From Centruroides vittatus (Eukaryota): a stretch of 64,000 nucleotides of DNA. The stretch is taken from NCBI RefSeq assembly GCF_030686945.1, contig NW_027122708.1, forward strand, positions 5,802,248 through 5,866,247, written 5' to 3'. Under the pieces are notes generated by a model. It was not told the DNA's origin and did no database searches. It worked only from the letters and a program-made list of their open reading frames with translations. Made by a program: the position numbers and the translations under genes. Of the stretch, positions 7,855 through 8,337 are shown one piece after another (position 1 is the first letter of the stretch; each line of letters starts with the position of its first letter).

Positions 7855-8337
7855 TTACAATGCTATCATTAGTTTTTCAATGTCAATAGAATTTAGCACC
7901 ATAATGACTTCCTTTTGTAAATGATTGTTGTTGCGACATTCCTGTATGACCACTGCTGTTTCTAACCAATCTGACACTATTTGCATAAAATCTTGTAAAA
8001 ATGCTACAAGATCTGCTGCTGAAGGACTGTCTACACCTGGATTAAAAAAAATCAAACTGGTAGCTTTTCCTAAATTTCCAACTCTCCCTGTTCTACCAAT
8101 TCAGTGAACGTATTTTTGGATTGTTTTGGCAAGATCGCAGTTTATTACATGGCGGACATCTTTGATATGTAAACCTCTAGCTGCAACAGCCATGGCTACT
8201 AAGATCAACATTCTTCCTGTTCGGAAATTCATCACAGCTTCCTCTCGCTCACATTGTAAACGATCCATATATACTTGTAGAATAATTATTCTGAGACATA
8301 AAAAGATGCTATAAAATCTGCTGTTCTCTACCTGCAC
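7855..8337 (-). pseudogene. DEAD-box RNA helicase (DDX3/PL10/Vasa-like) C-terminal fragment with in-frame TGA
   Basis: The contiguous translation reads ..[103 protein letters not shown]. It carries the DEAD-box motifs V and VI ([14 protein letters not shown]) and a DDX3-like tail. The invariant Arg of HRIGRTGR is a TGA codon (TAC GTT CAC TGA ATT GGT), consistent with a CGA to TGA change. Confidence 0.7.

Follow-up and report, generated by a model that had tools for sequence, protein, structure and literature searches.

A disrupted Vasa-type helicase 3' fragment beside a CDK1-pol remnant in transposon-rich DNA of Centruroides vittatus

The 64,000-nucleotide window of Centruroides vittatus DNA analyzed here (the whole stretch, contig NW_027122708.1, positions 5,802,248 to 5,866,247) contains, on its minus strand, a DEAD-box helicase fragment that is almost certainly a dead pseudogene relic. 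Compared with functional Vasa and DDX3 helicases it is a homologue that retains just the last third of the protein, and because its frame is broken repeatedly and residues of the catalytic motifs are lost, the fragment cannot encode a helicase. The full account that we favor, with somewhat better than even confidence, is that of a single-copy 3' relic of a Vasa-type gene (DDX4/DDX3 subfamily), of DNA-level origin and independent of the pol remnant that lies upstream of it. The relic spans roughly the last 215 codons and the 3'UTR of such a gene. The features of the region, in order of coordinate, are as follows.

7698–7703, minus strand: AATAAA hexamer, about 100 nt 3' of the second stop (sequence read)
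7804–7959, minus strand: degenerate C-terminal tail, with a frameshift at ~7962, TAA at 7857–7855, and a second stop, TGA, at 7806–7804
7960–8331, minus strand: pseudogene core, VE / TADFIASF / MSQNNYSTSIYG / DRLQ...motif V...motif VI...SDWLE (PDB, Pfam, and tblastn matches)
8050–8055, minus strand: 6-nt in-frame insertion (Leu-Ile) between ..GKATS and FFNP (two-residue gap in every homologue alignment)
8101–8103, minus strand: TGA in place of the first Arg of motif VI (translation, tblastn)
8264–8327, minus strand: cluster of three frame-disrupting indels (three-frame translation, ungapped tblastn, frameshift-aware dynamic-programming alignment)
8332–8470, minus strand: AT-rich spacer of 139 nt, TAATAAAG...TTTGATTTAAGTGCAG (sequence read)
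8471–8548, minus strand: upstream helicase-homologous segment (..VYVVLKFDLNLDLTNMLAFDYLTLVF), solid part 8518–8471 (tblastn and shuffles)
8652–9768, minus strand: Ty3/gypsy-type pol remnant comprising the C-terminal part of the reverse transcriptase (RT), RNase H, the integrase zinc finger, and the first half of the integrase core (Pfam)
9769–10194, minus strand: CDK1 5' fragment without introns, comprising codons 1–137 and about 16 nt of 5'UTR, fused to the RT remnant (tblastn, Pfam)

Identity and Extent of the Helicase Fragment

The sequence-only reading had placed here 161 contiguous codons from the C-terminal part of a DEAD-box helicase, and the frame running from 8337 to 7855 on the minus strand does comprise 161 codons, with a single internal TGA and a TAA at its end. 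The helicase identity was borne out by PDB, Pfam, and tblastn matches alike, and the match is genuine and far above chance level. The C-terminal RecA2 (Helicase_C) domain of a Vasa/DDX3-type DEAD-box helicase is found at 8274–7960, with the fragment matching Pfam PF00271 at 6e-18 and the best database relative (P0001) by tblastn at 2e-34. The domain is most similar to the Vasa/DDX3 subfamily; in a phmmer search of all PDB chains with the fragment the best structure was Drosophila Vasa (3e-29), followed by human DDX3X (1e-26), with DDX41, DDX17, and eIF4A scoring well behind both. The RecA2 domain also shares the family sequence ..SIHGDR.Q.EREEAL..FR.G...ILVAT.. with Vasa (DDX4) and PL10-DDX3. 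When frame-corrected, the fragment is 67% identical to P0001 over 119 amino acids and 71% identical to P0024 over 93.

The DDX3-type tail that the sequence-only reading had added could not be upheld, since no such tail is recognizable in that frame past ...SDWLE and the nearest relatives are of the Vasa type, with CCHC knuckles upstream and acidic, Trp-containing C termini such as ..EESWD (L001 and L004, described below). The signature GNLGKATS is common to the fragment and this Vasa-type group, as compared with GNLGLATS in the DDX3 type. Mean identity of the fragment is 58% to the Vasa group and 57% to the PL10 group, and on these sequence features we lean toward a Vasa rather than a PL10 assignment.

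Helicase homology also extends upstream of the core, on the far side of the spacer. Residues LDLLNATGKDSLTLVF of a DDX3X sequence that served as a probe only align to LDLTNMLAFDYLTLVF at 8518–8471 with 62.5% identity (tblastn), and this segment represents the strand ahead of VETKK, where RecA2 begins. Its ungapped score of 41 was exceeded in none of 1000 Markov-1 shuffles (maximum statistic, six homologue queries). Homology reaching 8518–8471 places the fragment ~100–130 nt from the truncated integrase, closer than the ~300 bp that had been given from the sequence alone. Between 8651 and 8519 helicase homology was not significant in shuffle tests (p about 0.05 and 0.75), and on that ground we rejected the idea that homology continues unbroken to the integrase break (FVALSV ~ FLAVGV). 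Over-fitting upstream of the core was seen in a dynamic-programming alignment that allowed a cheap intron state, and the pieces VRQHL.. and IFPEFKKT that it proposed there were rejected by shuffle tests. At the nucleotide level, alignment of two related Vasa cDNAs (L001 and L002) to the region detected the core alone and was uninformative about the upstream pieces.

Disabling Lesions

The catalytic motifs are altered at several positions. Motif V reads ARGLH and LVAM where ARGLD and LVAT are canonical, and motif VI reads H*IGRTGR instead of HRIGRTGR; the replacement of the invariant Arg by TGA, as had been read from the sequence, was confirmed at 8103–8101. The codon for this first Arg of motif VI is CGN in four of four relatives (L001–L004) and CGA in L001, from which the stop is a single C-to-T transition at a CpG. 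A 26-nt stretch across the TGA had no exact match in metagenome contigs, and exact-sequence look-ups of two ORFs of the window in a public gene index likewise returned no match. Among columns at least 95% invariant in 44 relatives, 5 of 35 are changed in the fragment: L to V, T to M (motif V), D to H (ARGLD), P to A (DLP), and R to stop. Motifs V and VI are thus not intact in an open frame.

The 161 codons hold as an uninterrupted frame (save for the TGA), but the first ~25 of them (VQVENSRFYSIFLCLRIIILQVYM) are not in the ancestral frame. The ancestral reading instead runs through VE at 8331–8326, TADFIASF at 8324–8301, (F)MSQNNYSTSIYG at 8302–8264, and DRLQ... from 8265, using three frames with successive pieces out of frame, and the joined pieces match VEQKTTADFLATFLSQNNYKATSIHGDRYQSQREEA of the relatives (three-frame translation, ungapped tblastn pieces). 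This split of the ancestral reading across frames is accounted for by an 8-nt deletion right after VE (~8325) and two 1-nt frameshifts, at ~8302 and ~8265. Beyond ...SDWLE similarity is lost or frameshifted, and the tail is barely recognizable. NSIDIEK may echo GGSDIRK of relatives and ..TEDFSLL* may echo ..VEESWD*, a weak likeness at a level below statistical support.

Strong domain similarity, and nothing else, speaks for the fragment being a true exon that belongs to a live helicase gene of several exons, with a stop codon that is a sequencing or assembly error. Against it stand at least three frameshifts, the 6-nt insertion, and the loss of invariant residues of motifs V and VI, and since at least three frameshifts, the insertion, and 5 of 35 changed invariants occur together, a single sequencing error is not the explanation, which disposes of the one error-based objection raised with the sequence-only reading. 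The fragment is decaying neutrally.

Absence of the Rest of the Gene

The live-exon reading fares no better upstream of the fragment. The RecA1 half, which in a functional helicase carries the Q motif together with motifs I, Ia, Ib, II (DEAD), and III, is missing: tblastn at E<1 detected no RecA1/DEAD segment on either strand of the 64 kb, whether the query was the DDX3X probe or a near-full-length Vasa probe assembled from the relative L001 and comprising CCHC knuckles, the DEAD domain, and Helicase_C. The Vasa probe was validated on scaffold L004, a positive control in which it picked up CCHC-knuckle, DEAD, and Helicase_C exons within 2.5 kb of the compact and genuine Vasa gene there. Because RecA1 is absent from the 64 kb while the control exons were recovered, the fragment is an orphan 3' relic and not a live exon. 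With a probe validated in this way and no RecA1 exons either in the roughly 55 kb upstream on that strand or elsewhere in the window, the live-exon reading is effectively refuted and retains next to no probability. The description of the fragment as a non-functional piece of a host gene, belonging to no intact gene nearby, therefore stands.

Two relatives have peculiarities of their own. L003 (positions 10001–10450 of ENA ERZ25073694 ctg131286, an unrelated 174-kb eukaryotic contig) is a lone, apparently intact Vasa-type C-terminal ORF, RFQSQRE...DDNWD*, with CRT-like genes in the opposite orientation directly upstream. Upstream helicase exons were not detectable within 10 kb of it. This ORF may itself be an orphaned Vasa 3' piece, or else part of a gene interrupted by a very long intron; it was dropped as the positive control for exon detection, a role that L004 took. 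L001 (Logan SRR18067514) is a transcript-like Vasa contig that keeps a ~70-nt GT..AG intron after ..GGSDIRK (2397–2470), and it carries a frameshift between its DEAD and Helicase_C parts, owing to which the gene caller made two ORFs.

The 3' End, Missing Introns, and an Intron-like Spacer

The main rival to a DNA-level origin is a processed retrocopy: a 5'-truncated copy of a Vasa mRNA made independently by a LINE reverse transcriptase, unrelated to the adjoining pol remnant, which later received a 139-nt insertion and whose poly(A) tail and target-site duplication have decayed. We hold this to be rather unlikely. One ground for it is that the fragment coincides exactly with the 3' end of a message, with C-terminal coding sequence, a stop, about 100 nt of 3'UTR, and the AATAAA at 7703–7698, which from its sequence and position may be an old polyadenylation signal. 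This same feature is also a counterpoint to a DNA-level origin, and LINE-like ORFs are present in the window (52421–53110; the LINE label was read from the ORF). Two marks of a processed pseudogene, a 3' poly(A) tract and flanking target-site duplications, are nevertheless missing. The hexamer is followed by (GAATT)3 and AT-rich sequence (Tandem Repeats Finder, TRF, reports (AATTC)3 at 7683–7697), and no poly(A) run 3' of it was found in the sequence or by TRF. Neither was a target-site duplication found around the fragment, the flanks sharing one 9-mer that lies inside the homology, nor were terminal inverted repeats found to flank it; searches for terminal inverted repeats, target-site duplications, and tandem repeats around the fragment gave nothing convincing.

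Intron content has been read both ways. The introns of L004, at E|VEKF, FKSG|RMP, and FFDP|, and that of L001 after SDIRK are all absent from the fragment, in which about 175 codons run without large interruption across these positions, and the absence of relatives' introns at three to four positions would be expected of a retrocopy. Intron positions are not conserved among the relatives, however: the corresponding part of L003 is one contiguous genomic exon from RFQSQRE to the stop, in contrast to L004. Since the positions vary in this way, missing introns are weak evidence for a processed origin.

The spacer bears on the same question. It is 27% GC and sits between the F codon that ends at 8471 and VE at 8331; its excision joins LTLVF|VE in frame to give the canonical sequence, so that its edge is an exact codon boundary. 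The 3' end of the spacer is T-rich and then reads ...GTGCAG. Its 5' edge is TA, not GT, the closest GT lying 6 nt upstream at 8476–8475, and a strict acceptor scan, which required YAG after a 15-nt stretch with at least 11 pyrimidines, flagged neither putative acceptor; the splice-site evidence is suggestive. Coding similarity of the spacer to helicase, including the string IFPEFKKTA, was not significant over 8470–8338, which omits the last 6 nt (275 of 1000 shuffles by the maximum statistic), and no second copy of the spacer occurs within the 64-kb window. From its sequence the spacer is probably a decayed phase-0 intron. An insertion into a retrocopy would have had to fall exactly at a codon boundary and to end in ..GTGCAG, and the spacer has neither a transposon copy in the window nor coding similarity. 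An intron-like spacer inside the helicase piece favors a genomic over a cDNA origin.

The CDK1-pol Neighbor

Upstream of the relic and on the same strand lie, in the order given by the sequence-only reading, the CDK1 fragment (10176–9769) and the pol remnant (9768–8652). The pol region was identified by Pfam on stop-masked translations (RT_RNaseH_2, 8e-17; RT_RNaseH, 6e-10; Integrase_H2C2, 4e-7; rve, 1e-6). The CDK1 fragment is 70% identical to human CDK1 (7e-60 by tblastn; match 10176–9769) and scores 2e-20 against Pfam Pkinase. CDK1 and RT are joined in frame (..NLLID|..), and the junction occurs twice in the window, at 9723–10194 on the minus strand and at 13367–14068 on the plus strand, the second copy being inverted and 95% identical. 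Both copies start at the same nucleotide, about 16 nt 5' of the ATG, with unrelated flanks. As CDK1 is intronless and the two copies share both boundary and junction, the CDK1-pol part behaves as cDNA-derived, and the chimera looks like a cDNA-derived fusion that was copied as a unit.

A sibling integrase copy at 10196–11166 (plus strand) is 5'-truncated and head-to-head with the CDK1 fragment, with 1 nt between them (10194/10196), and its first 256 nt (10196–10451) are an inverted copy of 8653–8912 with 89% identity. This junction suggests an inversion or fold-back rearrangement and not a simple nested insertion. Similarity between the remnant and its sibling breaks sharply at 8652, inside the integrase core, where the sibling goes on as a normal integrase and the remnant (..GTTTGTGC|GCCAACACTTGTAAAAAAAAAC..) reads GCCAACACTTGTAAAAAAAAAC... 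instead. The ~100–130 nt between this break and the helicase homology match neither partner significantly. Twelve nucleotides past the break a run of nine A residues (8623–8631, minus strand) could be the remnant of an A-tail of a retrocopied CDK1-pol RNA; no target-site duplication matching this run was seen.

The arrangement had been taken from the sequence alone as a composite of two host-gene fragments around a retroelement core, produced by repeated capture in one element lineage or as a retro-chimeric cluster. On this reading helicase, CDK1, and pol would form one retro-derived unit, either through successive captures by one lineage or as a tripartite template-switch chimera, in which reverse transcription would have started at the 3' end of a Vasa mRNA, moved to a gypsy pol RNA, and then to a CDK1 mRNA, which it followed to the 5' end. 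The order is what this predicts, all three parts lying on one strand as a 5'-mRNA piece, pol, and a 3'-mRNA piece with 3'UTR and AATAAA, and a CDK1 5' / pol / Vasa 3' series is a counterpoint to an independent arrival of the helicase piece. The intronless CDK1 sequence starting ~16 nt before its ATG, with the same boundary and CDK1-RT junction in two copies, agrees with it as well. For the CDK1-pol part the composite is cDNA-like and the description holds. It does not extend to the helicase piece, however, which is separated from the integrase break at 8652 by ~100 nt matching neither partner and contains the intron-like spacer. Poly(A), target-site duplications, and long terminal repeats (LTRs) are all missing around the proposed unit: no LTR-like direct repeats of at least 40 nt occur in 5–17 kb, so that, with the integrase cut at 8652, the fragment does not lie inside an element between LTRs. 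The second CDK1-RT copy breaks off at 14068 without helicase sequence, and the helicase piece is single-copy in the 64-kb window. Decay is also unequal, the CDK1 copies being 95% and the integrase copies 89% identical, and the helicase piece carrying several indels. Capture of the helicase piece by the element lineage, or its membership in a retro-chimeric cluster, is thus unsupported, and we regard the single-unit explanation as improbable.

Transposon Content of the Window

Most of the window is transposon debris. The second CDK1 copy is interrupted by a foldback (MITE-like) element of 225 bp at 13618–13842, which bears terminal inverted repeats (GGTTAATGTTACCTATGGTAGC...) and for which CATTTGG looks like a 7-bp target duplication; a partial relative of this element lies at 26138–26218. 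A repeat family of ~1 kb is present three times (11934–12929, 39101–40099, and 48990–49897; 83–87% identity), each copy being preceded by a shared segment of ~170 nt (11328–11503, 38941–39099, and 48821–48988). Labels read from translations include a Tc1/mariner-like transposase for the ORF at 40162–40979 (minus strand) and LINE-like ORFs and repeats at 52421–53110 (plus strand) and over 50.6–58.2 kb (50614–58156), the latter as 96–99% identical inverted or direct copies. GC content falls to 19–23% at 32–38 kb and 60–64 kb. An ORF fragment at 193–432 (minus strand) matches DUF4062 (Pfam, 7e-8), a domain located at the N termini of NACHT/TPR-type proteins, and may be a host-gene exon or another relic.

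Discussion

We infer an old intron in the spacer, a DNA-level origin for the relic, and separate arrivals of the helicase relic and the pol remnant. Under this DNA-level account the source would be genomic, intron-containing helicase DNA, either a segmental duplicate of part of the gene or what is left of a paralogue that would have lost its 5' exons through transposon insertion and then deletions. A Ty3/gypsy-type element already carrying the CDK1 fragment would have come to lie upstream in the same orientation and would later have been truncated inside its integrase, so that the present adjacency would reflect insertion and deletion in a transposon graveyard rather than gene capture. The adjacency by itself does not link the helicase piece to the element, given a pol remnant cut in mid-domain, the ~100-nt gap, the intron-like spacer, the lack of LTRs, poly(A), and target-site duplications, a single-copy helicase piece, and unequal decay. 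The precise 3' end of the message, together with the long run of codons across positions where relatives have introns, would also fit a 5'-truncated retrocopy.

In its properties the relic resembles non-processed pseudogenes in transposon-rich DNA, being likewise an orphan that has an intron-like spacer and multiple lesions, lacks the signs of retroposition, and sits among nested, truncated transposons. A different comparison is offered by template-switch chimeric retrogenes, which Buzdin and colleagues reportedly traced to a LINE reverse transcriptase jumping between RNAs and which are defined by a poly(A) tail and target-site duplications. The present locus shares with them a common strand, a CDK1 part that reaches the 5' end of one RNA, and a Vasa part that reaches the 3' end of another; it differs in having neither poly(A) nor target-site duplications, an indirect junction (~100 nt), and an intron-like spacer in its 3' part.

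The closest documented situation is that of AT-chX in the X heterochromatin of Drosophila melanogaster, where vasa-derived fragments yield piRNAs (PMC6486647). Like the present locus, AT-chX has pieces of vasa exons but not the remainder of the gene, with transposon fragments on either side and in between, in a transposon-rich region (PMC6486647). There, however, 26 near-identical copies contain exons 4–5 in reversed order and without the intron, and piRNA output has been demonstrated (PMC6486647), whereas the fragment described here is derived from the 3' end and is present in a single copy with no repeat family of its own in the window. By analogy, the transposon graveyard that contains the relic and the CDK1 fragments might be a piRNA cluster in which the relic gives rise to small RNAs with homology to the animal's vasa mRNA, an independent analogue of AT-chX; we consider this a very long shot. 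If it were true, a germline gene of the piRNA pathway would itself be targeted by cluster-derived piRNAs, as at AT-chX.

The CDK1-pol chimera, intronless, with a defined 5' end and in two copies, is a more interesting object than the helicase fragment. Were copies elsewhere in the genome to have the helicase piece travelling with the CDK1-pol unit, the locus would be a multi-gene retro-chimera, and the present evidence says that it is not. The relic is an ordinary pseudogene whose chief use is for annotation, where masking or flagging it is advisable to keep it from being taken for an extra vasa/DDX paralogue or a germline marker gene.
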